Origin: Candidatus Nomurabacteria bacterium
Lineage (GTDB): Bacteria; Patescibacteriota; Minisyncoccia; Phycocordibacterales; UBA9973
Direction: 5' to 3'
Assembly (NCBI GenBank): GCA_037139835.1
Contig: JBAXFQ010000002.1
Span: forward strand, 10,659 to 74,658
DNA: 64,000 bases
Shown here: piece after piece, positions 2,054-55,772 of the stretch
Layout: every line of letters starts with the position of its first letter
How positions within the stretch are numbered: position 1 is the first letter of the stretch
The notes under the pieces: generated by a model
What the model was told of the DNA's origin: nothing
The model's input: only the letters and a program-made list of their open reading frames with translations
The model's database searches: none
Program-made: the position numbers and the translations under genes

Positions 2054-3121
2054 ATGAAAAAAGAAATTGAAATAAAAAGTAAATCTTCAAATAGTAATTT
2101 ACATAAGGCAAATAAGGATAAAAAGGATGAGTTTTACACTCAGCTTATTGATATTGAAAAGGAGCTCAAAAACTATAAAGAACAATTTCGTAATAAAGTA
2201 GTATATTGCAATTGTGATGATCCTTTTGAGAGCAATTTCTTTAAATACTTTGCAAATAATTTTAATGCTCTTGGTTTAAAAAGACTTATTGCTACAAGTT
2301 ATAAGCCTTCACCTATTGCTAATACCCAACTAGAACTATTTGGAGATGATAAAACTTTAAAACCAATAAAAGGACGTCCTAAAACAAATGCTAATAAATT
2401 AATTATAAATGAAGTCAAAGATCTTGATGGTGACGGTGCGTTTGATTTGCGTGATGTTGCTGAACAACTTAAGATAAATAAAAATAATGAATGGTCACCA
2501 ATGGAAGGAGATGGAGATTTTAGAAGTGAAGAAAGTATAGAACTGTTAAAACAAGCAGATATTATAGTAACTAACCCTCCTTTTTCATTATTTAGAGAAT
2601 ATATCACACAACTTACAGAATATAATAAAAAATTTTTGATTATTGGAAATACAAATGCTCTAACTTATAAAGAAATTTTTAAATTAGTTAAAGATGACAA
2701 CCTTCGAACTGGTTATACAAATTTTAATGTCGGGATGTTTTTTGAAGTTCCTGATGATTGGCAAAAGTATCATCACATAGATGAGCACGGGAAAAAAATT
2801 GCTCGGGTTTCTACTTCATGTTGGTTTACAAATCTTGAAGTAGAAAAACATAAACAAGATATTATTCTTTATAAAAAATATGATCAAAATATTTATCTTA
2901 AGTATGATAATTATAATGGTATAGAAGTTCCAAAAGTTCAGGAGATACCAATGGATTATAAAGGTATTATGGGAGTACCAATTACTTTTGTTGACAAGTA
3001 TAACCCAGATCAATTTGAGATAATAAAATTTAGAAAAGGAGATGATGAAAAAGATTTATCTATAAATGGAGGGTATCCATATTTTAGAATTTTAATTAAA
3101 AATAAAAAACCACAAAAATAA
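2054..3121 (+). CDS. N6-adenine DNA methyltransferase, EcoRI-methylase family
   Basis: N-terminus LHKANKDKKDEFYTQLIDIEKEL...VVYCNCDDPFESNFFKYFA closely resembles the M.EcoRI N-terminus as I recall it; catalytic NPPF motif (IIVTNPPFSLF); extended -10 TGgTATAAT at ~1994-2002. Confidence 0.8.
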   Translation: MKKEIEIKSKSSNSNLHKANKDKKDEFYTQLIDIEKELKNYKEQFRNKVVYCNCDDPFESNFFKYFANNFNALGLKRLIATSYKPSPIANTQLELFGDDKTLKPIKGRPKTNANKLIINEVKDLDGDGAFDLRDVAEQLKINKNNEWSPMEGDGDFRSEESIELLKQADIIVTNPPFSLFREYITQLTEYNKKFLIIGNTNALTYKEIFKLVKDDNLRTGYTNFNVGMFFEVPDDWQKYHHIDEHGKKIARVSTSCWFTNLEVEKHKQDIILYKKYDQNIYLKYDNYNGIEVPKVQEIPMDYKGIMGVPITFVDKYNPDQFEIIKFRKGDDEKDLSINGGYPYFRILIKNKKPQK

Positions 3122-3122
3122 T

Positions 3123-4226
3123 ATGAAAATAGATTTAAATAAAATAAAAATTGTTGATGTTGTAAAAGATTATAAAGATAGTGCTGAAGAAGGAATATCT
3201 GCTTTTGGTGGTAAGTTAGATATTCGTCCTAAATATCAAAGAGAGTTTGTATATAGTGGAAAGCAAAGAGATGAAGTAATAAAAACTATTAAAAATGGTT
3301 TTCCTCTAAATGTTATGTATTGGGTTAAGAAAGAAGACGGTAATTTCGAAGTACTTGATGGGCAGCAAAGAACCATAAGTATTGCTCAATATGTCAATGG
3401 AGATTTCTCTATCGAATTCAATGGTAGAACTGCAATGTTTCATAATTTAACCAAAGAAGAGCAAAATCAGATTATGAATTATGAACTTATGATTTATCAC
3501 TGCGAAGGAACTGAAAAGGAAAAACTTGATTGGTTCAAAATAATTAATATAGCAGGAGAAAAATTAACAGATCAGGAGCTTAGAAATGCTGTTTATACTG
3601 GACCATGGCTTTCTGATGCAAAATTAAAGTTTAGTAAAACAAATTGTGCTGCATATTTACTATCAAATGATGGTGGACAACTAATAACTGGTTCACCAAT
3701 AAGACAGGAATATTTGGAAACTGCACTATTGTGGATAAATAATGAGGAAATAGAAGATTATATGTCTAAACATCAGCATGATAAAAATGCAGACAAACTA
3801 TGGCAATATTTTCAAAATGTAATTCATTGGATACGAGAAGTTTTTCCTAATTATCGTAAAGAGATGTCGAGTGTTAGTTGGGGTGAGCTTTATAATGCAC
3901 TTAAGGATAAAAAACTTGATTCAAAAAAAATAGAAAAAGAAATTAAAGAATTAATGCAAGAAGAAGATGTAACAAAAAAATCTGGCATTTATCCGTATGT
4001 GCTTACTCGAAAAGAGAGATATCTTTCTATTCGAGCATTTACACCAAACATGAAAAGAGAAGCATACGAAAGACAAGGTGGCATTTGTGTTGCCTGTAAA
4101 AAAGAATTTTCAATTGGAGATATGGAAGCTGATCATATAAAACCATGGCACGAAGGAGGTAGGACTATTGCCGAAAATTGTCAGATGCTTTGCAAAGAAG
4201 ATAATAGAACTAAATCTGGAAAATAG
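3123..4226 (+). CDS. ParB-like DUF262 domain + C-terminal HNH endonuclease (GmrSD-like two-domain nuclease)
   Basis: DUF262 signature DGQQRT (FEVLDGQQRTISIAQY); C-terminal His-Me/HNH motif CVACKKEF...ADHIKPWHEGG...NCQMLCKEDN; start 1 nt after the MTase stop (operon). Confidence 0.75.
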   Translation: MKIDLNKIKIVDVVKDYKDSAEEGISAFGGKLDIRPKYQREFVYSGKQRDEVIKTIKNGFPLNVMYWVKKEDGNFEVLDGQQRTISIAQYVNGDFSIEFNGRTAMFHNLTKEEQNQIMNYELMIYHCEGTEKEKLDWFKIINIAGEKLTDQELRNAVYTGPWLSDAKLKFSKTNCAAYLLSNDGGQLITGSPIRQEYLETALLWINNEEIEDYMSKHQHDKNADKLWQYFQNVIHWIREVFPNYRKEMSSVSWGELYNALKDKKLDSKKIEKEIKELMQEEDVTKKSGIYPYVLTRKERYLSIRAFTPNMKREAYERQGGICVACKKEFSIGDMEADHIKPWHEGGRTIAENCQMLCKEDNRTKSGK

Positions 4227-5317: not shown

Positions 5318-5758
5318 ATGAAAACATATAAAATATTAATATTAGAAGATGACTTTGAGGCTGTGAGTAAAATCATGGCTAAATTGTATGCATTGGAAGG
5401 TAGCTTTCCATCGATGGATTTTGATGTAACGGTTCTTTCTAGTTCAGAGTCTGTAGTGAAGCTCATCAATCCTCAAGATGCAGGTGCCTATGATGTGATA
5501 CTCCTAGATAGAGAGTGCAAGCTAGGTGGCTCTTTCCACGTCCTTGATATTGAAAAGTTTGGTGCCAATAAGATAATATCTATATCTACTACGCAGGCTT
5601 GGAATGAAGAAGCCAGAGCAAGGGGAGTCACAAGAGTCGTACCGAAAGTTTTCAATGATATGGACGCATTTGCTAGAAAATTAATGATAGAGATAAGAGA
5701 AGTCCTAACTGGAAATAATCCTTCACAATATCAAACCCGACGTTCTAGTAGTTTATAA
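5318..5758 (+). CDS. stand-alone response-regulator receiver (CheY-like) domain protein
   Basis: KILILEDDFE... acidic pocket and ...YDVILLDRE (phospho-acceptor Asp context); no output domain; no adjacent histidine kinase. Confidence 0.6.
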   Translation: MKTYKILILEDDFEAVSKIMAKLYALEGSFPSMDFDVTVLSSSESVVKLINPQDAGAYDVILLDRECKLGGSFHVLDIEKFGANKIISISTTQAWNEEARARGVTRVVPKVFNDMDAFARKLMIEIREVLTGNNPSQYQTRRSSSL

Positions 5759-5866: not shown

Positions 5867-6619
5867 ATGTATAATAAACGAATGCATAGCAAAAAAATAA
5901 TTATAATTTTATACTGTATTTTTATTTTGTGTGGCGCCTTGTCTTTGGTTTATATTCCAGATGCATCAAAATATTCTTATGGCTCAATTTTTGCATTGTT
6001 CATAATATCTCTACCTTTGTTTTATACACTTTATTTTAGATTTGGAATAAATACATTCATTAAATTAATTTTTTCTCTATCTTTATTTGCATTGCTCATA
6101 GAATATGTAGGGCTTGTCACAGGTTGGCCGTATGGAGAATTCTTATATACTGGGAATCTCGGTTATAAATTGTTTGGAATACTGCCATGGACTGTCGGAC
6201 TTTCCTGGACACCGCTTGTCGTCGGGTCTGTTGCTATGGTCTATCCTGTCACACAAAGAAAAGTATTACGAATCATATTGCCTGTAATAGTGTTGGTTGT
6301 TTTTGATCTGCTTCTTGATCCAGTAGCTGTTAATTTGGGTATGTGGTCATATTTACATGGTGGGGCATATTACAGCGTGCCTATTCAAAACTTTTTTGGT
6401 TGGATATTTTCTGGTTTGATTGGATCATTAATATGTTTTTATATTTTAAATAAATCTGATAATAAAATTTTTAATTTAGGATATAGTCTTCTTATTAATA
6501 TTATTTTTTGGTCTATCGTAGCTTGGGGTTTAGGATTGTATATACCTTTAATTTTCGGAATTTTTCTTATTATGTGTTTTACTGTGATATACTTTAAAAA
6601 TAATGAAAGATTTTCTTAA
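5867..6619 (+). CDS. polytopic membrane protein, carotenoid-cluster associated (candidate lycopene-cyclase-domain / carotenoid hydratase-like protein)
   Basis: About 7 hydrophobic segments; 3' end overlaps the start of the UbiA-family gene (translational coupling); function inferred from context only. Alternative start ATG 5882 (the 5867 ATG sits inside a TGTATAAT-like -10). Confidence 0.35.
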   Translation: MYNKRMHSKKIIIILYCIFILCGALSLVYIPDASKYSYGSIFALFIISLPLFYTLYFRFGINTFIKLIFSLSLFALLIEYVGLVTGWPYGEFLYTGNLGYKLFGILPWTVGLSWTPLVVGSVAMVYPVTQRKVLRIILPVIVLVVFDLLLDPVAVNLGMWSYLHGGAYYSVPIQNFFGWIFSGLIGSLICFYILNKSDNKIFNLGYSLLINIIFWSIVAWGLGLYIPLIFGIFLIMCFTVIYFKNNERFS

Positions 6620-7433
6620 GATAAGTCGCCCAAGGTTTTGGGTTTATGTAGCGGGACCCTTTTGGCTTTGTGGAGCTATATTTTACCCGTTGGGTGTAAA
6701 TATTACCCCGATGCTCATTTTTTTACTTTACTTTACCTTTCCGGCGAATATTTTAATATATGGAATCAATGATTTATATGATCGTGCAACCGACACTCTC
6801 AATACTAAAAAGACTTCATATGAGCAGGTTTTAGATAAAAAGTATGATAAAAAATTGATCTGGATTATCATACTTACAAATATACCTTTTTTGATTTATG
6901 GTTTTTTTGTTTTGCCAACAGCGTCATTTATATGCCTATTATTATTTGTAGTTTTATCTTGGCAGTATTCTGCAACTCCATTAAGAGCCAAAGCTGTCCC
7001 ATTTTTAGATAGCTTTGTCAGTGGTCTTTTATATATAGTGCCAGCCGGTGTTTCTTGGGCCCTTATTACAAATTCTTATCCACCATTCTTGCCAATGTTG
7101 GCTGGCTTTTTATGGTCTTACTCTATGCATTTGTATTCTGCTGTGCCTGATATCAATGCAGATAAAATGGCAGGTATCCAAACGGGAGCGACACTCTTAG
7201 GTAAAAATACCACGCTTATTTTATGTGGTGTTTTATATGCAGTGTCTTCCTTGATAGCTTATTTTTATATTGGGTTTTTTGCAATTATTGCTGGGTTGGG
7301 ATATTTGTATTTAATATTTATTTCCATCAAAAAAAGTAAACCAGAAGAAGTTCTCGTTATATATAAAATATTTCCATTTTTAAATACATTAGTTGGTGGA
7401 ATTCTTTTCGCGATTCTATTTTTTCTGCATTAA
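6603..7433 (+). CDS. UbiA-family aromatic/isoprenoid prenyltransferase (candidate lycopene elongase-like)
   Basis: UbiA superfamily Asp-rich motif NDLYDRATD and second motif DINAD; polytopic membrane protein; adjacent to crtI/crtB/polyprenyl synthase. Confidence 0.6.
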   Translation: MKDFLKISRPRFWVYVAGPFWLCGAIFYPLGVNITPMLIFLLYFTFPANILIYGINDLYDRATDTLNTKKTSYEQVLDKKYDKKLIWIIILTNIPFLIYGFFVLPTASFICLLLFVVLSWQYSATPLRAKAVPFLDSFVSGLLYIVPAGVSWALITNSYPPFLPMLAGFLWSYSMHLYSAVPDINADKMAGIQTGATLLGKNTTLILCGVLYAVSSLIAYFYIGFFAIIAGLGYLYLIFISIKKSKPEEVLVIYKIFPFLNTLVGGILFAILFFLH

Positions 7434-8945
7434 TTATAGACTCTTTAGAGGATGAACATCTTCATTTTTTGTAATACGTTTATAGACTAATTCTGCTGAG
7501 ATTATGCATATAGGCATACCTATACCTGGGTTTGTACCTGCTCCGACATAAAATAAATTTTTTATTGTTTTATGAATATTGTTTGGTCTAAATAGTGCAG
7601 TTTGATTTATCGTATGAGCAAGACCTAGGGCTGTGCCTTTATAAGCATTGTAGTCTATTTCAAAATTTTTAATAGAATAAGTCTTTTTAAAAATTATTCT
7701 ATCTCTAATATTATTTACACCTGCATAATTTTCAATTTCTGATAATACTTTTTCTGTGTATTCCTTTTCGAAATTATCATCATATGTAAGGCCTGGGGCT
7801 ATAGGTACTAAGACGAACAAATTTTCACAGTCAGCAGGCGCAATATTCTTATCGCTTTTTGATGGAGCACTTATATAAATAGATGGATCATCGGGCCATT
7901 TAGGATTATGAAATATCTGATCAAAGCCTTTACTCCAGTCTTTTGAAAAAATTAAATTATGATGTTCTAAGCTAGGTATTTTATCTTTTATACCTAGATA
8001 AAGTATAAATGCACTAGGGGCAAGCATTCGACTATCCCAATATTTTTCGCTGTGCTCTTGGTATGGTGCTTTTAATAAATGTTGATCAGTGTATGTAATA
8101 TCTGCATTTGAAATAACAATATCAGCGAAAATTTTTTCATCATTGTTTGTCAATCTTATGCCTTTGGCGATGTTATCTTCTACGATAATCTCACTTACTG
8201 GCGAATTTTTCATTATTTTTACGCCATTTTTAATTGCAATTTTTTCCATTGCCTCTGGTAGTTTCCAGACACCTCCATCGGGGTACCATACTCCTAGTCC
8301 AAAATCTACATAATTCATCATGCTATATATACCAGGGCAGTCGCCAGGAGCAGTCCCTAGTAACACCATTTGATATTGCAAGACTTTTTGCAATATCTCA
8401 CTTTTGAAGCGAGACTCGATTATTTGCTTTTGCTTTTTTAGAAGTGGTAATTTCCATCCAACTTTAGCGACACTCCAAGTTAGAAAATCAAAAATAGAAT
8501 TATAATTTTTAAACATGAATTCATTATATGCAATACTGTATTGTAATTTTAATTTATCTAAAAATTTTACCAATACCTGTCCGCTACCTGGTTCTATTTT
8601 TTCAAATGTTTCTTTATTTTTATCTATATCACCAAAAAAATCATAATGTGATTTGTCACTTTTTAGGAAAACACGGTATGAAGGGGACAGCTTTTTTAAA
8701 GTATAATAATCACTGATTTTTTCACCCATAAGTTCAAAGAAATGTTCGAATACTTCAGGCATCATATACCAGCTTGGGCCCATGTCGAAGATAAAACCAT
8801 TTTGTTCAAATACTCTGGCCCGACCACCGACTGATTCATTCTTTTCAACAATCGTTACATCGTAGCCCTTTTTTGCAAGCATACAAGCCGAGGCCAAGCC
8901 TCCGATACCCGCACCAATAATGATTATAGATTCTTTTTTATTCAT
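7434..8945 (-). CDS. crtI: phytoene desaturase family FAD-dependent oxidoreductase (CrtI/CrtN-like)
   Basis: N-terminal FAD fold IIIGAGIGGLASACMLAKKGYDVTIVEKNESVGGRA; ~500 aa, typical of the CrtI family. Confidence 0.8.
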   Translation of the reverse strand: MNKKESIIIIGAGIGGLASACMLAKKGYDVTIVEKNESVGGRARVFEQNGFIFDMGPSWYMMPEVFEHFFELMGEKISDYYTLKKLSPSYRVFLKSDKSHYDFFGDIDKNKETFEKIEPGSGQVLVKFLDKLKLQYSIAYNEFMFKNYNSIFDFLTWSVAKVGWKLPLLKKQKQIIESRFKSEILQKVLQYQMVLLGTAPGDCPGIYSMMNYVDFGLGVWYPDGGVWKLPEAMEKIAIKNGVKIMKNSPVSEIIVEDNIAKGIRLTNNDEKIFADIVISNADITYTDQHLLKAPYQEHSEKYWDSRMLAPSAFILYLGIKDKIPSLEHHNLIFSKDWSKGFDQIFHNPKWPDDPSIYISAPSKSDKNIAPADCENLFVLVPIAPGLTYDDNFEKEYTEKVLSEIENYAGVNNIRDRIIFKKTYSIKNFEIDYNAYKGTALGLAHTINQTALFRPNNIHKTIKNLFYVGAGTNPGIGMPICIISAELVYKRITKNEDVHPLKSL

Positions 8946-8949
8946 AAGA

Positions 8950-9792
8950 TTAAAAATATTTAATTATAATATAGATCTTTCTAAGTATTGAAACTCGCAC
9001 TCTTTCCTTGAATATTCTTTCGGGCTTCTTCTTTATTTTTTCCATTATTTCTTTATACAAATAAAGGGCTATACGTACCGCCCGCCTCCCTGATTTATTT
9101 AACATTGGTATACCTTTTAGTGCTTCATTGTATAAAATTTCGTTTCTTTCAATTTCATACAGTACTAGTTTTTTCATTTGTTCGCTCATTACTTCATTAT
9201 GAAAATCAGCTTCTGTCATGTTGTATCTTTTTATATCATCTTGAGGTATGTATATGCGCCCACGAGCTAGGTCTTCCTTTATGTCACGTAAAAAGTTTGT
9301 AAGCTGAAATGCTTCCGCTAATGCTTTTGCATAGATTAAAGCCCCATCATTAAAGCCGATTATACAGGACATCATATAACCCACAACAGTAGCTGAACCG
9401 TACATGTATTTCTCAAGTTCACTGTAATTTGCATAACGATTTTTATTCGTATCTTGAAGCATTGAGTCTAGAAATATATCACTGTACTCAAAAGGTATCT
9501 TGCAGTCATTCCAGAGTACTGCATTGGCTCTAAGTACTGGGTTCACATCAGTTGATCCATTATATGCCTTTTCCCATTCATTCTTCCACGCTAAAATTTT
9601 TTGTCTTGCTATATTTGAATCTTTCTCTTCGGTATCAACTATTTCATCAGGATAGCGCACAAATGCATATAATACCCAAGTCCGTTCTCTCAAATTTTTT
9701 GGGAAAAAATATGTAGAAATAAAATACGATGTACCATATGAACGAGTCATATTTTTGCAAATTTGTATATCATTTGATTGGATTTTTTCCAT
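8950..9792 (-). CDS. crtB: phytoene/squalene (dehydrosqualene) synthase family
   Basis: YAFVRYPDEIVD (first Asp-rich motif) and DLARGRIYIP (second motif) of trans-isoprenyl diphosphate synthase head-to-head enzymes. Confidence 0.8.
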   Translation of the reverse strand: MEKIQSNDIQICKNMTRSYGTSYFISTYFFPKNLRERTWVLYAFVRYPDEIVDTEEKDSNIARQKILAWKNEWEKAYNGSTDVNPVLRANAVLWNDCKIPFEYSDIFLDSMLQDTNKNRYANYSELEKYMYGSATVVGYMMSCIIGFNDGALIYAKALAEAFQLTNFLRDIKEDLARGRIYIPQDDIKRYNMTEADFHNEVMSEQMKKLVLYEIERNEILYNEALKGIPMLNKSGRRAVRIALYLYKEIMEKIKKKPERIFKERVRVSILRKIYIIIKYF

Positions 9793-10833
9793 TTAGTATT
9801 TTCTTTTTGTTACTATTGAAAGTAAGTTTATAATTTTTTCTAAGTATTCCTTTTTTAAATTAGATTTTGAGATAGCGTCCAGAGCAATACTTTCTTTCTG
9901 TTTAATAAAATTTTCCGCAAAATTAAAAGCTCCAGTATGCTTTAGAAATAAATTTATTTCCTCTTGGTTATTTATGTTTTTGTTTCCAAACCATTTAGCC
10001 CAAGTCTCATTTTCTTCCATTGTTGCATTTTCATCAATGTATATACTTATCATAGTATGTACTCCGTTTTTCATATCACCCAAGGGGTTCTTTTTAAGTG
10101 TCACTACATCTTTTGTGAAATCAAAAATATCATCTTGCATTTGAAATAGTAAGCCTACAGAATCACCGAAATCCGTAATCCATGAAAAATCTTTAATTTC
10201 ACCTTTGGCTAGTATCGCTCCCAACATTAAAGGGTGGGTGAAAGTATACCTAGCAGTTTTTAAGAGCATCTTATTCTCGGCATTAATCATAGTTACTGAT
10301 TTATCAATAGGATCATATACATCAATCATTTGGCCAATTATTACCTCTTCTGTAAGTAAATGAATAATATTCCAAGATTCCTGCGTTTGATTGCATTTAC
10401 TGAATTCTTTGTATGCCCAAGAAAAAACAAGGTCACCTAATAGTATCGCTATCGACTGACTTATTTGTTTTGCTGTTTCTTTATTTGTTTTAGAATCTAG
10501 GTCCTGTTCTATGTATTTATGTACAGAGGTGGCTCCATGTCGTGTATCTGATGCATCCATGATATCGTCATGAATCAGTGCCATTAAGTGAATTAGCTCT
10601 ATACCTATTAAAGTATTTTTTATGTCATGCCAGTTTTTACCAGAATATATACTATATGTCAGCGCAGTATTGTATGGTCGTATTCTCTTGCCGTTCGAGC
10701 CAATTGTAAGTAAATATTTTAAATAATCTGTACTTGGGTGTAATTTAAGTCTAGAATTTGAATCTGATATTAGCATTTTTAGCTCATTTTCAAATATAAT
10801 ATCAAATTCTACTTTAAAATCATTTATATTCAT
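9793..10833 (-). CDS. polyprenyl diphosphate synthase (GGPP/FPP synthase type)
   Basis: FARM LIHDDIMDASDTRHG and SARM FQMQDDIFDF. Confidence 0.8.
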   Translation of the reverse strand: MNINDFKVEFDIIFENELKMLISDSNSRLKLHPSTDYLKYLLTIGSNGKRIRPYNTALTYSIYSGKNWHDIKNTLIGIELIHLMALIHDDIMDASDTRHGATSVHKYIEQDLDSKTNKETAKQISQSIAILLGDLVFSWAYKEFSKCNQTQESWNIIHLLTEEVIIGQMIDVYDPIDKSVTMINAENKMLLKTARYTFTHPLMLGAILAKGEIKDFSWITDFGDSVGLLFQMQDDIFDFTKDVVTLKKNPLGDMKNGVHTMISIYIDENATMEENETWAKWFGNKNINNQEEINLFLKHTGAFNFAENFIKQKESIALDAISKSNLKKEYLEKIINLLSIVTKRKY

Positions 10834-11000: not shown

Positions 11001-12113
11001 ATGTCACTATCAATCGGAATCGTAGGTCTACCAAACGTCGGGAAGTCGACACTTTTTAACGCTCTTACAAAGAAGGGTGTGCCTTGCGAGAACTACCCAT
11101 TTTGTACGATAGATCCTTCTGTAGGTGTCGTGGCTGTTCCTGACGATCGTATATGGAAGCTCTCAGAATTCTCGAAATCTGCCAAGACTATTCCTGCCGC
11201 TATTGAATTCGTAGATATTGCCGGACTCGTAAAAGGAGCATCGGAGGGTGAAGGACTTGGAAATAAATTCTTGGCCAACATTCGTGAAGTGGATGCAATC
11301 CTTGAAATGGTCAGAATCTTTCCACTCAAGAATGATAAAGGCGATGAGATATTACATGTCATGGGCGATATTGATCCACTTCGTGATATAGAAATAATTA
11401 ATTTAGAATTAATCCTTGCCGACTTAGAAACAGCTGTAAAAAGGAAGAACAATATCGCTCGAGAAATCAGACGTGGAGATAAAGAATTTATCCTAGAAGA
11501 AGAAGCTTTAAATAAAATTATTCCGACACTTGAAGCTGGCAAGCTTGCCAACACTATAGACTTCAATGAAAAAGAATTAGAGAAAGTAAAACAACTTGGT
11601 CTTTTGACTATGAAGCCATTTATATATGGACTCAATAAAAGAGCTGGAGCTGAAAATCTAGATACTTCAAATCCAGAAATTTTTAAAGAGCTCACAGACT
11701 ATATTGAAAGCATGGGTTCAAGATATGTGGTGATAGATGCAAAGATTGAACATGAACTTATGGACTTTGAAGGAGAAGAGAAGGAAATGTTCCGAAAAGA
11801 ACTTGGAGGGGATGATGATGGTATAAATAGTCTTATAACCGAAGGGTATAAGCTCCTAGGTCTAGATACTTACTTTACGACCGGAGAGGATGAGACGAGA
11901 GCTTGGACAATAAAAAAGGGAAGTACTGCACCTGTCGCTGGTATGGCTATACATACAGACTTCAAAGATAAATTTATAAGAGCTGAAGTAGTTTTCTGGA
12001 AAGATTTACTAGACTCAGGTAGCTATGCTGAAGCTCGCTCAAAAGGAAAAGTCCGAACAGAAGGAAAGGAATATATAGTGAAGAATGGAGATGTCGTAGA
12101 ATTCAAAATTTAA
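11001..12113 (+). CDS. ychF: ribosome-binding ATPase YchF (Obg-family)
   Basis: GIVGLPNVGKSTLFNALT P-loop; C-terminal TGS-like region; length 370 aa. Confidence 0.9.
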   Translation: MSLSIGIVGLPNVGKSTLFNALTKKGVPCENYPFCTIDPSVGVVAVPDDRIWKLSEFSKSAKTIPAAIEFVDIAGLVKGASEGEGLGNKFLANIREVDAILEMVRIFPLKNDKGDEILHVMGDIDPLRDIEIINLELILADLETAVKRKNNIAREIRRGDKEFILEEEALNKIIPTLEAGKLANTIDFNEKELEKVKQLGLLTMKPFIYGLNKRAGAENLDTSNPEIFKELTDYIESMGSRYVVIDAKIEHELMDFEGEEKEMFRKELGGDDDGINSLITEGYKLLGLDTYFTTGEDETRAWTIKKGSTAPVAGMAIHTDFKDKFIRAEVVFWKDLLDSGSYAEARSKGKVRTEGKEYIVKNGDVVEFKI

Positions 12114-23574: not shown

Positions 23575-23740
23575 CATACAAAAATATCTTATATAAGATA
23601 TTTTTGTATGTGCGGGAGAGCAAGAGAACTGCTTCTCTTGCGTGCGGAAATCGAAAGACTTTTCTGTAATTTGTTTACAAATTCAGAAAAGTACCTGGCT
23701 ATGTAATAGCCGATAAGCGTACTCGCGGTCCCGACCACAC
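23570..23740 (+). repeat. tRNA-Gly-associated downstream module: perfect 46-bp palindrome (23570-23615) overlapping the last 5 nt of the tRNA, GC hairpin, antisense T-arm copy, long hairpin, GTAA-loop hairpin, conserved box CGATAAGCGTACTCGCGGTC, acceptor-3'-end copy
   Basis: Arms CCGCACATACAAAAATATCTTAT / ATAAGATATTTTTGTATGTGCGG; GCGGAAATCGAAAG is the inverse complement of the T-arm; CCGACCACACA mimics the tRNA 3' end CCGACCGCACA; homologous to the module after tRNA-Arg. Confidence 0.7.
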
Positions 23741-23856
23741 ATTGACTTAAATCTAGTTTTATTGACTTGTAAATATTTCATGTCAAGATGTTGCTTATTT
23801 TTTTAATATGATATACTAAAAATAGTTTTGAATTATTAATTAATTAAAAAATATTT

Positions 23857-24223: not shown

Positions 24224-24440
24224 CACACTCAAAAATATCTTTTTAAAGATATTTTTGAGTGTGTGCCCCGAACAAGCAAACTTCTTTGCTTGTGTGCCAG
24301 AATCGAAGACCTTGAGCTTGGATTTTAAAATTATTATTTTAAAATACGCGAAAGGTGTACTGAACCTGTAAGGTTCGATAAGCGTAACCGTGGTCGGCCG
24401 GGGGCACCAATTATATACTCGCGGTCTGGCCGGGGGCACC
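24218..24440 (+). repeat. tRNA-Arg-associated downstream module: near-perfect palindrome (arms ~24218-24243 / 24246-24269) overlapping the tRNA 3' end, GC hairpin, antisense T-arm copy (GCCAGAATCGAA), GTAA-loop hairpin, box CGATAAGCGTAACCGTGGTC, two acceptor-3'-end copies (GGCCGGGGGCACC at ~24396-24408 and 24428-24440)
   Basis: Same architecture and shared boxes (AAAAATATCTT...AAGATATTTTT centre; GAATCGAAGAC; CGATAAGCGTA; TACTCGCGGTC) as the tRNA-Gly module. Confidence 0.7.
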
Positions 24441-24477
24441 TTTTATTTTTCATTTAAATATGATAAAGTATACCCAA

Positions 24478-48961: not shown

Positions 48962-48993
48962 ATTATACAGCACAAATGATACTATCTGTCTAT

Positions 48994-49281
48994 ATGAATA
49001 AAACAATACATACAAATTGCCCTATAGCTAAAACAGCCCAGCTACTATCTGACTCTTGGACTATGCTTATTATTCGTGATTTATTGGGCAATAGTATGCG
49101 TTTTTGTGAAATAGAGACTTCTCTTGATGGTATTAGTAGCCGCACCTTGGCTTTAAAGTTGAAACGTTTAGAAGAGGAGAAGATAATAAAAAAATCAGAA
49201 TTATACTATTCACTTACAGCTCAGGGGAAAAAATTAAAAAAAGTTATAGATGCTATGGAATCTTGGGGTAAGACATTATAA
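48994..49281 (+). CDS. HxlR-family winged-helix transcriptional regulator
   Basis: CPIAKTAQLLSDSWTMLIIRDLLGNSMRFCEIETSLDGISSRTLALKLKRLEEEKII; start moved to ATG 48994 (track start 48976 lies inside the predicted -10). Confidence 0.75.
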   Translation: MNKTIHTNCPIAKTAQLLSDSWTMLIIRDLLGNSMRFCEIETSLDGISSRTLALKLKRLEEEKIIKKSELYYSLTAQGKKLKKVIDAMESWGKTL

Positions 49282-51069: not shown

Positions 51070-51507
51070 GTGTATATGATAAAAGAAGGAACAAAAATAA
51101 TAGATTTTAGTCTTGTTGATCAAGACAAAGTAGTACACAAATTATCAGATTATTCTACAGGTCGCGTGCTTTTGTATTTTTACCCCAAAGATGATACTCC
51201 TGGATGTACAAAAGAAGCATGTATGATAACAGAAGTTTATGATGATTTTATAAAGGCAGGAATCACTGTTCTAGGTGTATCCTCTGATTCACCAGAGAGT
51301 CATAAGAAATTTAAAGAAAAATATAATTTACCTTTTACTCTTTTGTCAGATACAGACAAAAAGGTTATTAAGGATTATGGAGCTTCTTCTTTATTATTCA
51401 CCAAAAGAATTTCATATCTTATAGATAAAGGGGTAATAATCAAAGTTTATCCGAAAGTTGACCCTGCAACTCATGCGATAGAAATATTAAAAGAAATAGG
51501 AATATAA
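51070..51507 (+). CDS. bcp: thiol peroxidase / peroxiredoxin Bcp
   Basis: FYPKDDTPGCTKEAC peroxidatic Cys motif. Confidence 0.8.
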   Translation: MYMIKEGTKIIDFSLVDQDKVVHKLSDYSTGRVLLYFYPKDDTPGCTKEACMITEVYDDFIKAGITVLGVSSDSPESHKKFKEKYNLPFTLLSDTDKKVIKDYGASSLLFTKRISYLIDKGVIIKVYPKVDPATHAIEILKEIGI

Positions 51508-51565
51508 TACCAAATAAAAACTCCCGAACGGGAATTTTAATTATATTTTATAATCAAGTTCGATA

Positions 51566-51650
51566 AAATTAGAATTAGATTGTAAGGGGCATAAGGGGAT
51601 TTTGATGAAAAAAATAATCACTTGACAAAATATTTCTATGTGATATGATA
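51566..51650 (+). repeat. copy 1 of repeated promoter module (AAATTAGAATTAGATTGTAAGGGGCATAAGGGGATTT + TTGACA-N17-TATGAT at 51622-51650)
   Basis: Homologous to copies at 52550, 53424, 54310 and 55231. Confidence 0.7.
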
Positions 51651-51962
51651 TTAACCGAGTAGTCTAGTATGTTTCAAACTTTCATTTTGAAATTAGCCCG
51701 AGACAAAAGGCTGGTATTCGTTTCAAAAAACTCATGGCGATGAGAAAAGCAGAGATCGCCATCTCTGAGAGAAACATGAATACAGAACGATAAAATATCT
51801 TTTAATAAATTTTGTAATAAAAAAATTCTAATTTAAAGCACCGTCATAATTTTGGCGGTGTATTTATTTTTATTTAAAATATATAAGTATTTTAAAAATT
51901 AACTAGACAAAACGAGATATTTGGGGTAATGTGGAGAAAATTCACAATTAAAAATTAACACG

Positions 51963-52469
51963 ATGAAAAAGGTTTATTTTTTTAGTCTATTGATTACTGG
52001 AATTCTATACGGGAATGTTGGTAGGGCTCAGTGTATAGAGAAGTTGATTTTATCTACAACATTAGATGAAATTTCTGATGTTATTGATAATAATGTCTCT
52101 TGTATAAAAGAGACATTAAATAATCAAAAATATGAAAAGTTTAAATTTAAGATAAATTATTTATATAAAACTTCTTATATTTGGGTTTATCATAAAAATC
52201 CGGAGAAAGAAAGATTGTTTAATAAATTTTATCAAACCTATGGATATTTATATCCTAGTCTGTTATCCATTAAACCAACTTCTGGCATCTTTTATGATGC
52301 TCTAAATGAAATGATTGCTAGCGACCCTAAGTACTTTTCTCAAATTCAGAAAACAAATATTCCACTCAAATATATACAGTGGATGAGAGTCAAAGGTTTG
52401 AAAGAAAAATTTGGTGAAGCAAGCGTCATCCGGTTAATGCAATCTGCTTCTAAAATTATTGATATGTAG
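51963..52469 (+). CDS. hypothetical secreted protein (168 aa)
   Basis: Signal peptide MKKVYFFSLLITGILYGNVGRAQC; ~300-nt leader after module copy 1. Confidence 0.35.
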   Translation: MKKVYFFSLLITGILYGNVGRAQCIEKLILSTTLDEISDVIDNNVSCIKETLNNQKYEKFKFKINYLYKTSYIWVYHKNPEKERLFNKFYQTYGYLYPSLLSIKPTSGIFYDALNEMIASDPKYFSQIQKTNIPLKYIQWMRVKGLKEKFGEASVIRLMQSASKIIDM

Positions 52470-52507
52470 TTTAGACAATAAATTTTTTAAAAAGAAAGGA
52501 GAATAGG

Positions 52508-52662
52508 ATACTCTGCAGACATAATCTGTGGAGTATTTTTTTAATCTATGACCCTAGGGGGCAAAATTAGAACTAAATTGTAGGGAAGATAAGGAGGATT
52601 TGGGATTTTGAGATTAAACAATAATTTTAACTATTGACATGAAATATTAGCAGTTGTATAAA
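52508..52662 (+). repeat. copy 2 of repeated module: terminator hairpin ATACTCTGCAGACATAATCTGTGGAGTA + T7 (52508-52542), GACCCTAGGGGG box, AAATTGTAGGGAAGATAAGGAGGATTT, TTGACA-N17-TATAAA (52634-52662)
   Basis: Near-identical to copy 5 at 55187-55283. Confidence 0.75.
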
Positions 52663-52809
52663 TACAATATATATAGCTCTTTGAAAACGAATATTTTTTT
52701 CGTCGTCAGACATAAGGTTTTGATACTTTATGCCTGGCGATGATGAACATTTCCAGGTCTGTGCTAATGTTGGCATAGAAATCGACGGTGATCGTCGAAA
52801 GGAGACAAT

Positions 52810-53352
52810 ATGTTACTTAATTTTTTTGATGGTGATTATGATTTTACGGGTGAAGGTATCTTTTTAATGGCTATTATTATGTTGGTTTTTTTTCTAAATT
52901 ATTTTTATTTTAAACCCAAAAAAATAATTGAAGAAATCGCTTTGAAAAAAAGTAAAGAAGAATGGAAACTAAAAAATGATGAATTGAACAGAATTAATAT
53001 TGAAAATGAAAAGAATCAATTTGCACTTTATAAGTTTGGTGTAAAATTGGGTACAAATTTACAAAGTAATAATTATGCTTACGACGAAATTATTCGCATT
53101 GTAAATTTAATAGCCATAAATGTATCACAGTTGTGCGTAGAACAAGACAAAATAAATAGAAGTGATTCTAAGATTTGGGAAAAAAAATGCATCGACGAAC
53201 AATTGAAAGAAATAAAAACTAAATGGGCTGAGATGAGAGAATCTGCTGTTTATATTAAATCTGATTTAATTAATCATTTGCCACATTTCAGTGAATATGA
53301 ACCATTGAAGAGTTACAATGCAGAGAATAATCTCAGAAAAAAATCTATATAA
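52810..53352 (+). CDS. hypothetical membrane-anchored protein (180 aa)
   Basis: N-terminal TM, charged coiled-coil-like remainder. Confidence 0.35.
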   Translation: MLLNFFDGDYDFTGEGIFLMAIIMLVFFLNYFYFKPKKIIEEIALKKSKEEWKLKNDELNRINIENEKNQFALYKFGVKLGTNLQSNNYAYDEIIRIVNLIAINVSQLCVEQDKINRSDSKIWEKKCIDEQLKEIKTKWAEMRESAVYIKSDLINHLPHFSEYEPLKSYNAENNLRKKSI

Positions 53353-53423
53353 TTTTAAAAATTATATTAACTGAAAGTTAAATTAAAGAGGTCATTTGAA
53401 TTTTATTCAATGACCTTTTTTAT

Positions 53424-53518
53424 GGCCCAGTGGGTTGGAGTCGGAACCAGATTGTAGGGAATATGATATATTTTTTAAATTAATAGTTATTGACAAAATA
53501 ATATAAATATGTTATTTT
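53424..53518 (+). repeat. copy 3 of repeated module (GGCCCAGTGGG box, GGAACCAGATTGTAGGGAATATGATATATTTT, TTGACA at 53490-53495)
   Basis: Second AGGGGAT half-site degenerate in this copy. Confidence 0.6.
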
Positions 53519-53621
53519 AGAAGGTAATTATGGATCTTTAAATATTCTGTTTTTTAATATTTGGTGGATGATCTCTGTCTCTTGATTGGAGGTTGAGATA
53601 ATTCACTAAAAATAAAAAAAC

Positions 53622-54248
53622 ATGAAAAAAATTTTAGTTGTTGGTGGAACAGGCTTTATTGGTGTAGCTATTACCAATAAATTGAAAGCTAAATATTTTA
53701 GTTTTAATGTTATCAGTGTGGGGCATTCAGAACTTGATGTCACAAATTTAGATAGCATATCTAAATTTTATATTAATAATGTTAATAATGAAATATTCGA
53801 TGGAATTATATATTCTGTTGGTAATTGCCCTCCATATGGATTTATAGAGGAAGTAAAAAATCCATTATTAAATCTTGATCCTAGTAAGTTAAATGATGAT
53901 TTCGATCTTCATGTAACTGGACTCTTAAGGGTAATTCAAATGATGAAAAATAATCTTAGCTCAAGTGCGAAGATAGTCGTCATTAGTTCCGGTATTACAA
54001 TGGTTACGGATGAGACTTGCCCTCCAACTCTTTTTGCTGGTCATTATGCTACTGTTAAGTCTGCTCAAGACGAACTTGTAAAATGGCTTAATCGAGATCA
54101 ATTTTTTCTAAAAAAAGGAATTTCGGTTAAAAGCTTAAAGTTGAGGTCTATAGATACACCATTCCACTGGAAAGAACCAGTTGAACTTAAATCGCCATTT
54201 ATGATGTCTCTGGATGATGCATCGGAAATGATTCTAAAAGAATTATAA
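53622..54248 (+). CDS. NAD(P)-binding Rossmann-fold protein (short-chain dehydrogenase / NmrA-like)
   Basis: KILVVGGTGFIGVAI dinucleotide-binding motif. Confidence 0.55.
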   Translation: MKKILVVGGTGFIGVAITNKLKAKYFSFNVISVGHSELDVTNLDSISKFYINNVNNEIFDGIIYSVGNCPPYGFIEEVKNPLLNLDPSKLNDDFDLHVTGLLRVIQMMKNNLSSSAKIVVISSGITMVTDETCPPTLFAGHYATVKSAQDELVKWLNRDQFFLKKGISVKSLKLRSIDTPFHWKEPVELKSPFMMSLDDASEMILKEL

Positions 54249-54309
54249 AATTATTAAGGAAGCCAATACAAATTCGTATTGGTTTTTTTATTTGTATGCT
54301 GATTTAGAA

Positions 54310-54391
54310 AAATTGGAACCAGGTACTAGGAATATAAGGGGATTTAAGTTATTTAAATATTATTGACAAAGTAGCGTAAATATGCTATTAT
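54310..54391 (+). repeat. copy 4 of repeated module (AATTGGAACCAGGTACTAGGAATATAAGGGGATTT + TTGACA-N17-TATTAT at 54363-54391)
   Basis: Promoter hexamers and spacing seen directly. Confidence 0.7.
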
Positions 54392-54436
54392 TTGAAAGTA
54401 AAATTGTTATTCGAAATCATTTTAATTTAATATGTT

Positions 54437-55150
54437 ATGAAAAACCTGTTTCTGTTGTTTGTTTTATCGTTCTCATTTATTAGTAGTATTTATTCTCAAA
54501 CAGTGACTTTGGTCACTACCACAAACGGTATTGCTCCCATCCCAGCTTTTACTTTGGGTGAGCCGGCAACACTTGTGTTTTTAAACACAAACCTGAGTAA
54601 GCATTTTAGCTTTTCTCCGGATATTGCTTTTTCAACAAAAGATGGCAGCTTTTGGTTTTCAGATTTGTGGTTGAGATATCACACAGAACTGGATTCAGCA
54701 AATAAGTGGAATATGATTGTGGGAGTGGATTACCCCTCATTCATCGGAGGATCCTCAAAAAATGCTAGTGGAAAAAAGATTTCTACGACTTCTATCTATC
54801 CTACTGGCCAATTTTGTTTAGAAAGAAAAATAGGAGTGAATAATTTATTGGTTTTAGACTATTGGTATTTAAAAGCTACTGATATGTCTACCGGTATAAA
54901 GGGAAGTTATCTTAGTTTGTCTTTTTACTACAATAAACCTTTAAAAGATTTTTCTTTTGGATTACATCCAAATCTTTTCTATCTGAATTATTCAGACGGC
55001 ACCAAGGGATTTGTAGGAGCCTTGGATGTAAGGTTTTCTCATAACAAATCCGGATTATTTATTGCTAGTCAGGGGATGTCTCCCTTGGGAGCAGAAAGAG
55101 TAAAATCTGGTTGGAACTTGTCTGTGGGAATTACCAGAAAAATGTTTTAA
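54437..55150 (+). CDS. hypothetical secreted protein (237 aa)
   Basis: Signal peptide; C-terminal ...WNLSVGITRKMF ends with Phe after alternating hydrophobic residues (beta-barrel-like terminal signature; weak). Confidence 0.35.
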   Translation: MKNLFLLFVLSFSFISSIYSQTVTLVTTTNGIAPIPAFTLGEPATLVFLNTNLSKHFSFSPDIAFSTKDGSFWFSDLWLRYHTELDSANKWNMIVGVDYPSFIGGSSKNASGKKISTTSIYPTGQFCLERKIGVNNLLVLDYWYLKATDMSTGIKGSYLSLSFYYNKPLKDFSFGLHPNLFYLNYSDGTKGFVGALDVRFSHNKSGLFIASQGMSPLGAERVKSGWNLSVGITRKMF

Positions 55151-55186
55151 CTGTATTAATTAAAATTTTAAAATGAAAGAAAAATA

Positions 55187-55283
55187 ATACTCTGCAGATA
55201 TAAAATCTGTGGAGTATTTTTTTTGTCTGTGACCCAAGTGGGACAAAATTGGAACCAGATTGTAGGGGATATAAGGGAATTTA
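55187..55283 (+). repeat. copy 5 of repeated module: terminator hairpin ATACTCTGCAGATATAAAATCTGTGGAGTA + T run (55187-55224), GACCCAAGTGGG box, AAAATTGGAACCAGATTGTAGGGGATATAAGGGAATTT (55245-55283); no promoter hexamers follow
   Basis: Best consensus copy: tandem AGGGGAT...AGGGAAT half-sites 10 bp apart. Confidence 0.75.
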
Positions 55284-55298
55284 GTTTATAAACTAAAG

Positions 55299-55616
55299 TT
55301 AATTAAAACTGTTACCGAATGCTATTCCAGAAATAATAAAAACTAAAATGACGGATATTATTAAAATATAATTAATTGTATTATATATTTTTTTATTTTC
55401 TGAAAATATGGAAATTATTGATATTATTATTATAAATGATAAAAATGGAAAAACTATTGGTCCGTCTCCTTTATTAAATGTAAATCCATGGCTTATATAA
55501 GCCATAGTTTGCAGCCCTGAAATAATTATAAAAATAGAAGGTATGATCATTTTCCCAAAACTTTTCTTACTAACGGTTGTTTGTTGTTTAATATCTTTAT
55601 TTTGTAAATTTTCCAT
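55299..55616 (-). CDS. small polytopic membrane hypothetical protein (105 aa)
   Basis: ORF track; 3 hydrophobic segments. Confidence 0.3.
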   Translation of the reverse strand: MENLQNKDIKQQTTVSKKSFGKMIIPSIFIIISGLQTMAYISHGFTFNKGDGPIVFPFLSFIIIISIISIFSENKKIYNTINYILIISVILVFIISGIAFGNSFN

Positions 55617-55700
55617 ATAAACATTGTATCAGATTTCAAATCATAAATATATCCCGTGGGTTACAAAAAAGATACTTATAAAATAAGCTCAAAAAATTTG

Positions 55701-55772
55701 TGACCTTACGGGGAATCGGACCCCGATTACCGCCTTGAGAAGGCGATGTCCTAACCGTTAGACGATAAGGCC
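55701..55772 (-). tRNA. tRNA-Glu (anticodon CUC), CCA not encoded
   Basis: Reverse complement GGCCTTA-TC-GTCT-AACGGTTA-GGAC-A-TCGCC-TTCTCAA-GGCGG-TAAT-CGGGG-TCCGATT-CCCCG-TAAGGTC-A; closely parallels E. coli tRNA-Glu (GGCGGUAAC-AGGGG-UUCGAAU-CCCCU); T-loop has C at position 55. Confidence 0.75.

Follow-up and report, generated by a model that had tools for sequence, protein, structure and literature searches.

The question raised by this locus is why an element of ~55 nt occurs five times between positions 51545 and 55283 of a 64 kb window (by which we mean the whole stretch of Candidatus Nomurabacteria DNA analyzed here), and what holds together the small genes that lie between its copies. 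An initial annotation had described a repeated module of terminator, GACCC box, two AGGGGAT half-sites and promoter that accompanies each gene, and had taken the half-sites for an operator bound by a shared regulator; it had overlooked the tRNA-Glu gene next to the array, on which the whole structure turns. In our analysis the operator reading is largely replaced by that of a cassette array anchored at tRNA-Glu, and we consider it probable, though well short of certain, that this array was built by serial site-specific insertion of promoter-bearing cassettes of 1-3 genes at tRNA-Glu through a trans-acting recombinase.

The five copies described initially are real: a profile of the element matched 5 sites, all on the + strand, with no other match in the 64 kb, and long sub-patterns of the element had no match in shuffled sequence. 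The array takes up exactly the space from a peroxiredoxin gene (51070-51507) to the 3′ end of a tRNA-Glu(CTC) gene (55700-55772, - strand; ARAGORN; Rfam, 57 bits), which resembles the element and whose 3′ end points towards the array; we propose that this gene is both the attachment site and the source of the repeat. For comparison we used a set of related sequences amounting to 1.35 Mb from 97 sources (the sequences and contigs compared with the window carry labels such as L003 or L089); 7 contigs came from one metagenome scan with a degenerate pattern, and another array came from a protein-guided look-up. Synteny comparison revealed a conserved backbone around the array, running from the dcw cluster to MurF and tRNA-Glu, RsmI and the downstream genes, and the relatives of the neighboring RsmI gene all belong to Patescibacteria (Paceibacteria/Parcubacteria group); the host itself is a member of the Paceibacteria. 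Among the relatives, the interval from MurF to tRNA-Glu ranged from 0.5 kb (L009) to 8 kb (window), and in L011 the peroxiredoxin gene is separated from tRNA-Glu by 130 bp, which constitutes an empty site. Two assemblies made independently of each other, L001 and L002, contain this same array, which is therefore no product of mis-assembly.

The repeat originates from tRNA-Glu and lies in the same orientation as the gene. Its left ~35 nt are a diverged antisense copy of the tRNA-Glu 3′ end, its start equals the antisense 3′ end of the tRNA (GTGACCCTACCGGGAATCGAACCCGGATTACC...), and TGTGACCC is common, letter for letter, to many copies and the tRNA-Glu gene. When aligned end-to-end with the antisense 3′ 55 nt of tRNA-Glu, the consensus scored 12.5-15.5, compared to 3.2 ± 1.5 for a shuffle null (p ≤ 0.0002), and upon scoring 118 tRNA ends (59 tRNAs) the best 15 were all antisense ends of tRNA-Glu. 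Similarly, the element profile matched tRNA-Glu alone among the 59 tRNAs, in register with the 3′ terminus, and alignments of single copies to tRNA-Glu gave p values of ~0.005-0.01, with the reverse orientation at null level. The linkage is exclusive as well: all profile hits with E < 1e-3 in the 1.35 Mb from 97 sources were located on the 3′ side of tRNA-Glu (CTC or TTC), antisense, and this held in 9/9 contigs that reach a tRNA, the two element-bearing contigs without a tRNA being fragments of 1.5-1.8 kb. Copies thus occur only in arrays beside tRNA-Glu, and not ubiquitously in the manner of a repetitive extragenic palindrome (REP). An exact-pattern scan of the GTDB genome representatives with a three-copy pattern returned 0 matches, so that the source species either is missing from the representatives or has copies of another sequence there. 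Viral contigs, scanned three times with one part of the element or another, yielded 0 copies and no phage or satellite donor.

The consensus of 22 copies from the window and its relatives is TGTGACCCAAGTGGGACAAAATTGGAACCAGATTGTAGGGAATATAAGGGGATTT, with the variant TGTGACCCTAGGGGGTTGGAATTGG.... The repeat starts with (AATC)TGTGACCC, continues with a decayed pseudo-T-arm and ends in a conserved non-tRNA block, (G)AATATAAGGGGATTT, which is the best-conserved part of the element and bears only weak likeness to tRNA. The element is near-identical between contigs that carry unrelated cassettes, and arrays hold 1-7 copies spaced 0.4-1.6 kb apart. Within the window the five copies (all +, all located by profile, copies 1-3 also by alignment and copy 5 also by pattern) differ in their state of preservation. 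Copy 1 (51545-51603), which is furthest from the tRNA, has a degenerate tRNA-like left half without GTGACCC; copy 2 (52541-52601) is of the TATGACCCTAGGGGG... type; copy 3 (53417-53468) has a degenerate right block; copy 4 (54299-54347) has a decayed left half and an intact right block, ATATAAGGGGATTT; and copy 5 (55222-55283; TGTGACCCAAGTGGGACAAAATTGGAACCAGATTGTAGGGGATATAAGGGAATTT) is the best preserved. Compared with its L089 counterpart, copy 4 is ~60% identical in the left half and ~93-95% identical in the flanks (values read by eye from the alignment). As for the motifs named in the initial annotation, copies 2 and 5 have a clear GACCC(T/A)AG(G/T)GGG box, copy 3 has a degenerate one and copies 1 and 4 lack it, and the pair of AGGGGAT half-sites is a property of the consensus only, no window copy having both in perfect form (copy 5 reads AGGGGATATAAGGGAAT).

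Folding of both consensus variants as DNA, on both strands, gave no stable structure (z -0.5 to +1.6), RNAalifold on 20 copies gave no consensus pairs and no covariation, and the element has no terminal inverted repeats. Rfam searches, at gathering thresholds for the whole window and at E <= 10 for the island, retrieved tRNAs only, leaving the element and the leaders unmatched. Reading the repeat as an attC-like site or an RNA element was ruled out by this lack of structure in the DNA, RNA and alignment folds. An inverted GGGTCAC partner upstream of every copy, which would form an attC-like palindrome, was found at few junctions only and is not general.

Comparison with a near-identical strain, L089 (RsmI 95%, peroxiredoxin 94%), revealed another set of cassettes in the same place. 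From the peroxiredoxin gene to tRNA-Glu, the window carries a leader RNA with a gene of 168 aa, followed by genes of 180 aa, 208 aa (similar to short-chain dehydrogenases, SDR-like), 237 aa and 105 aa (-), and L089 carries genes of 208 aa (SDR-like), 237 aa, 298 aa (methyltransferase-like), 178 aa (-) and 357 aa. L089 is therefore without window units 1-2, has units 3-4 (its copy of the 208-aa gene is 94% identical) and has four other units in place of unit 5. The breakpoints between the two strains fall in the repeat: at the junction after the 237-aa gene, in copy 5 of the window, the sequences agree over a stretch of 106 nt as far as TTTTGTCTGTGACCC and part at the very next base, identity stopping exactly after TGTGACCC. 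The first L089 junction resembles a chimera of the left side of copy 1 and the right side of copy 3 of the window.

Cassettes are also re-used, 4 of them recurring across arrays at different positions and beside different tRNA-Glu isoacceptor genes. The 237-aa cassette is present in the L089 array and in the tRNA-Glu(TTC) array of L090, where homology extends from inside the upstream element through the promoter, gene and terminator to the downstream GTRACYC. A two-gene cassette common to L003 and L083/L087 ends <=8 nt before AATCTGTGACCC; in L003 it occupies the tRNA-proximal position, and in L087 it comes fourth or later among the units. An 81% identical orthologue of the 168-aa gene is the distal-most gene of the L003 array. 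The ~10 arrays comprise ~35 units of 0.4-1.6 kb with a regular build of element, promoter, gene and terminator; the genes between the repeats are mutually unrelated, and ~40 other cassette open reading frames (ORFs) are unique. The cargo is heterogeneous and includes an SDR-like protein, methyltransferases, a NUDIX protein, a P-loop kinase and a trio of ArsP permease, thioredoxin and rhodanese, as well as many secreted or membrane proteins without a family. In this respect the initial annotation was right to see an accessory, lineage-restricted island of portable one-gene units, each with its own promoter and terminator. In L003, a Maf-like gene (5321-5638, - strand) has lost its 3′ end where a 110-aa cassette starts, suggesting that cassette insertion or rearrangement is not always clean.

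Serial site-specific insertion would proceed as follows. Cassettes in circular form would be inserted into the tRNA-Glu 3′ end by a recombinase encoded elsewhere in the genome, and each would bring an att-like site, usually its own sigma-70 promoter, 1-3 genes and a terminator. With GTGACCC, or the position just behind it, as the crossover point, insertion would regenerate the tRNA and push the previous junction outward, where it would form the pseudo-tRNA repeat at the far side of the unit; the newest cassettes would therefore lie by the tRNA and the oldest by the peroxiredoxin gene. We infer, rather than observe, that the recombination is site-specific and not homologous, that the intermediate is circular, that the enzyme acts in trans and that the array grows in this direction.

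Several points weigh against this mechanism. We found no integrase or recombinase in the 64-kb window or beside the ~10 arrays (Pfam, for the island, its flanks and the other unannotated window ORFs, and for array flanks and cassette ORFs; most window genes were classed as housekeeping by reading their translations only), and no integrase, replication or phage genes in the ~35 units and their flanks (arrays including those of L003, L007, L010, L089 and L090); the recombinase would therefore have to act in trans, and the lack of a gene for it in these sequences is the main gap of the model. Neither an excised circle nor an empty/occupied pair from one population was observed. Only two of the breakpoints are clean, and the copy-1/copy-3 chimera does not resolve the crossover point. 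Inverted cassettes also occur, although none would be expected of a strictly directional recombination, and the likeness of the repeat to tRNA is weak past the first ~35 nt. In L090, a tRNA-Cys gene (11960-12031) that directly abuts the start of a 315-aa minus-strand gene is situated between the last cassette and tRNA-Glu(TTC), so that insertion straight into the tRNA-Glu end would fit only with tRNA-Cys counted as cargo; cassettes may be able to carry tRNA genes, or else this genome takes up its insertions downstream of the tRNA-Glu/tRNA-Cys pair. Lastly, deletions by homologous recombination between direct repeats could give some of the same patterns. Homologous recombination between the repeats explains deletions, but it cannot explain the unrelated genes between the repeats or the fixed breakpoints.

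The alternative that survives best, and which we nevertheless regard as unlikely, is that the repeats are scars of larger integrase-bearing elements (prophages or islands) that integrated serially at tRNA-Glu and were whittled down to one gene each, with no dedicated cassette system. Although tycheposons (bioRxiv 10.1101/2020.12.28.424599) are one well-documented case in which serial integration at tRNA genes leaves partial tRNA repeats behind, and such a history would suit both where the repeat lies and its descent from a tRNA, none of the ~35 units retains an integrase, replication or phage remnant, and their small size and regular order of element, promoter, gene and terminator speak against it. 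Old internal copies do decay in the tRNA-like half, as this alternative has it, but conservation of the non-tRNA block ATATAAGGGGATTT extends over unrelated cassettes and genomes, which points to one constrained element family and not to independent scars. Intact small cassettes moreover recur elsewhere with the same borders, and the three viral-contig scans were without an element copy.

We consider it quite unlikely that the element is mainly cis-regulatory, with AGGGGAT-like half-sites bound by a common regulator and with spread by duplication of a promoter module. Near-consensus promoters do follow copies 1-4, as the initial annotation stated (TTGACA in each, with spacers of 16/17/17/17), and copy 5 indeed lacks one. 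Among 28 non-redundant copies from the window and its relatives, however, 15 have no TTGACA within 75 nt, and the remaining 13 have one at varying distances of 17-47 nt; many of the promoterless copies are followed by a convergent gene, and several abut its 3′ end. The promoterless copies and the loose spacing do not support a shared operator. Conservation is highest in the right block, (G)AATATAAGGGGATTT, which stays intact in old copies where the tRNA-like half has decayed, but the conserved block GAATATAAGGGGAT is equally conserved with and without a promoter behind it. The 13 promoter distances fall into loose groups around 18, 28, 36 and 47 nt, roughly as helical phasing would have it (Rayleigh p ~0.02, a hand estimate made before correction for orthologous copies), and for this weak hint we keep a secondary regulatory role of the right block as a minor possibility. 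A regulatory element leaves unexplained the tRNA-Glu-derived left half, the linkage to tRNA-Glu and the cassette borders within the element, and no regulator gene travels with the arrays. An HxlR-type regulator gene is situated 2.3 kb upstream (48976-49281), and nothing ties it to the element.

Very improbable, finally, is a generic dispersed repeat of the REP kind or resembling a miniature inverted-repeat transposable element, or local tandem duplication with unequal crossing-over and no insertion from outside: the repeats are direct and closely spaced, and the deletion between the window and L089 needs homologous recombination alone, but there are no copies elsewhere in the window or away from tRNA-Glu arrays in the 1.35 Mb, the element has neither terminal inverted repeats nor a stable fold, the genes between the repeats are unrelated and therefore cannot have been made by duplication, and distant homologues of the 237-aa protein lie in ordinary synteny without the element.

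The units of the window are described here from the peroxiredoxin side to the tRNA. Unit 1 has a sigma-70-type promoter (51622-51649, +; TTGACA-16-TATGAT with TG before the -10) followed by a structured transcript or leader of ~200 nt (51656-51872, +; fold z -2.9; no Rfam match) that ends in a terminator hairpin (51838-51861, +) 5′ of the gene. Copy 1 does lie upstream of the gene at 51963, as noted initially, but its promoter is predicted to drive this ~200-nt transcript, with its own terminator before the 168-aa gene. A small RNA is one possible identity of this transcript, and what is left of a cassette after loss of its gene is another; a possible ORF of 19 codons is present within it (51737-51796). 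Cassette gene 1 (51963-52469, +; 168 aa) encodes a protein with a signal-peptide-like N-terminus and no Pfam family. The unit ends with a terminator hairpin found by repeat search (52505-52539, +; ATACTCTGCAGA...TCTGTGGAGTAT and a T-run), and the homologous hairpin at the end of unit 4 (55186-55218, +) bears out the second terminator with T run of the initial annotation.

The promoter of unit 2 (52634-52662, +; TTGACA-17-TATAAA) was read from the sequence, the rule of our promoter scan having excluded it (its -10 ends in A). It is followed by a 5′ leader (52668-52812, +) that folds more stably than expected (z -5.6; 0/200 shuffles as stable; no Rfam match), in which the Shine-Dalgarno sequence AAGGAG is paired with GCUCUUU near the 5′ end, and on the strength of this predicted fold the leader may be a translational control element. 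A leader motif found after promoters, GYTCTTTRAAA, was not enriched in the window (5 vs 2.4 expected); in unit 2 it is this motif that pairs with the Shine-Dalgarno sequence. Cassette gene 2 (52810-53352, +; 180 aa) encodes a protein with an N-terminal transmembrane helix and no Pfam family. Unit 3 consists of a promoter (53490-53518, +; TTGACA-17-TATTTT with TG), cassette gene 3 (53622-54248, +; 208 aa) and a terminator hairpin (54255-54290, +). In the Pfam search of the five proteins, that of gene 3 gave a weak short-chain dehydrogenase/NAD-binding Rossmann match (adh_short, 3e-05, below the Pfam cut-off), and the proteins of genes 1, 2 and 4 matched no family. Unit 4 has a promoter (54363-54391, +; TTGACA-17-TATTAT with TG) and cassette gene 4 (54437-55150, +; 237 aa), whose product has a signal peptide. 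Its family numbers 17 homologues among 5.8 billion proteins, and the distant ones, found in conserved chromosomal synteny of the ordinary kind, suggest that a cassette picked up the gene by capture. Taken as a class, promoter-like sites were not enriched in the region (57 vs 54 expected), and only the top-scoring ones stand out.

Unit 5 is on the opposite strand. Cassette gene 5 (55299-55616, -; 105 aa) encodes a multi-pass membrane protein and is preceded by an upstream module (55617-55699, -) with an extended -10 (TGATACAAT) a few bases before the ATG. The module contains a tentative inverted partial element (GTAACCCACGGGATA...TTTGAAATCTGAT), the similarity being weak (p = 0.007 to 0.34). 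The module is conserved ahead of minus-strand cassette genes in L010 (8845-8929), L087 (oriented; 1649-1737 and 3042-3148) and L086 (oriented; ~820-917), with the common motif GCTTATTTTATA...AACCCAnnGGGATAT...TTTGGAAnCTGATATAAT. It may have arisen from the element by inversion and divergence. Only 6-10 nt separate the extended -10 from the ATG, which suggests that the minus-strand cassettes produce leaderless mRNAs.

A second element, which we call element X (~130-190 nt), sits beside tRNA genes and inside some arrays. In the window it follows tRNA-Gly and tRNA-Arg (23610-23741 and 24263-24406, within 23576-23741 and 24225-24450), and in relatives it follows tRNA-Glu or copies of the ~55-nt element (L090 6798-6944, 9667-9813, 10789-10923 and 12061-12207; L003 6906-7038; L025 5754-5898). 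After the tRNA come a perfect palindrome of 36-40 nt, the tRNA 3′ end in antisense copy with a hairpin interrupting it, a set of three conserved hairpins, GATAAGCGTACTCGCGG and finally the tRNA 3′ end in sense copy. The two arms of element X thus match the 3′ end of the neighboring tRNA and change with it (Gly, Arg or Glu), and the X behind tRNA-Arg contains a nested extra copy that ends in CCA. A covariance model yielded nine strong copies, in which 92.6% of cells pair compared with ~44% for slid partners (the alignment was fitted to the model, so the percentage is somewhat inflated), with compensatory changes in 18/32 pairs and no match in Rfam. Some junctions show, ~35-43 nt ahead of the tRNA-Glu 3′ end or of an element copy, an inverted copy of the same sequence (TTAGGGTCAC ... 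GTGACCCTAA) around a hairpin (L011 9742-9795; L003 7030-7090; L090 10920-10965 and 12200-12257); the inverted and direct copies together make one long palindrome that includes the tRNA acceptor end and that is the outer arm of element X. Element X could be a tRNA-linked noncoding RNA, previously undescribed, or a mini integrative element, and it may be part of the same tRNA-end-directed machinery as the cassette system.

Elsewhere in the window, positions 5867-10833 hold a carotenoid-type gene cluster, an unusual cargo for the candidate phyla radiation (CPR), with genes assigned by reading their translations only as those for a lycopene-cyclase-like membrane protein, a UbiA-type prenyltransferase, a CrtI-like desaturase, a phytoene synthase and a polyprenyl synthetase. 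At 2054-4226, a gene for an EcoRI-type adenine methyltransferase (Pfam 3.9e-130) adjoins a GmrSD_N and HNH nuclease gene, the pair being probably a restriction-modification or modification-dependent defence system.

CPR/Patescibacteria have tiny genomes with few recognisable mobile elements, and to our knowledge the gain and loss of accessory genes in these bacteria is poorly understood. If the array was indeed built by serial insertion, tRNA-anchored, self-expressed mini-cassettes would be a concrete mechanism of accessory-gene turnover in CPR, and an independent evolutionary solution that resembles integrons. As a possibility that we put forward tentatively, Paceibacteria may possess a hitherto undescribed gene-capture platform, in function analogous to the integron and of independent origin, in which a trans recombinase acting on the ~55-bp tRNA-Glu-derived site inserts, excises and shuffles self-expressed cassettes of 1-3 genes at tRNA-Glu genes as a main route of accessory turnover. 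The literature that we searched contained no direct report of cassette arrays beside tRNA genes in CPR bacteria. With its short length and clear definition (TGTGACCC, pseudo-T-arm, ATATAAGGGGATTT), the site makes it possible to mine metagenomes, to catalogue the cassette pool and to search for a co-occurring recombinase. For annotation, the array accounts for assembly breaks at this place and for pseudo-tRNA fragments in these genomes.

Three kinds of known systems invite comparison. Cis-mobilizable elements without an integrase (CIMEs) and Xer-dependent modules, such as integrative mobile elements exploiting Xer recombination (IMEX) and pdif modules, are non-autonomous, att-bounded units that depend on a recombinase in trans and can accumulate in tandem at one site; they use the attL/attR of a known integrative and conjugative element or 28-bp dif-like XerC/D sites. 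The units described here would likewise be non-autonomous and bounded by att-type sites, with the recombinase proposed to act in trans. Their size and their build of promoter, gene and terminator differ, and no such site or helper turned up in our data, in which no test was aimed at them.

The likeness to integrons and to clusters of attC sites lacking integron-integrases (CALINs) is in the output. As in those arrays, mostly single-gene cassettes are separated by a short conserved repeat that looks like a recombination site, content varies between close strains, the same cassette occurs in several arrays, the cargo is diverse and mostly unannotated, and one end of the array is the presumed entry point. 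Integron attC sites are imperfect inverted repeats (R''-L''...L'-R', with a GTTRRRY core) that form hairpins as single-stranded DNA, and integron cassettes are generally promoterless and are expressed from a common Pc promoter. Unlike attC, the repeat described here is no imperfect palindrome, has no single-stranded fold and has no GTTRRRY core visible in the alignment; unlike integrons, the arrays have no intI or attI nearby, promoters and terminators come with the cassettes themselves in place of a dependence on Pc, and the anchor is a tRNA gene from which the site itself is derived.

In position and in the origin of its repeat the array fits the family of tRNA-targeted islands. We observed the position at a tRNA 3′ end, an empty site and direct repeats of the tRNA 3′ end in the same orientation, with no integrase inside any of the ~35 units. 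Prochlorococcus islands built by tycheposons arise through serial integration of mobile elements at tRNA genes (bioRxiv 10.1101/2020.12.28.424599), and they share with the array a hypervariable island at a tRNA 3′ end, partial tRNA copies between units, newer units that presumably displace older ones outward, a streamlined host genome and a cargo of niche genes. Tycheposons, however, carry a tyrosine or large serine recombinase, usually replication genes and kilobases of cargo, whereas the units here measure 0.4-1.6 kb and hold 1-3 genes without a recombinase, and the repeat between them goes beyond a tRNA fragment, being a distinct conserved ~55-nt family with a non-tRNA block. Serial cassette insertion at tRNA-Glu, the reading that we favor, would be a variant of tRNA-targeted integration with an integron-like output, not previously described.

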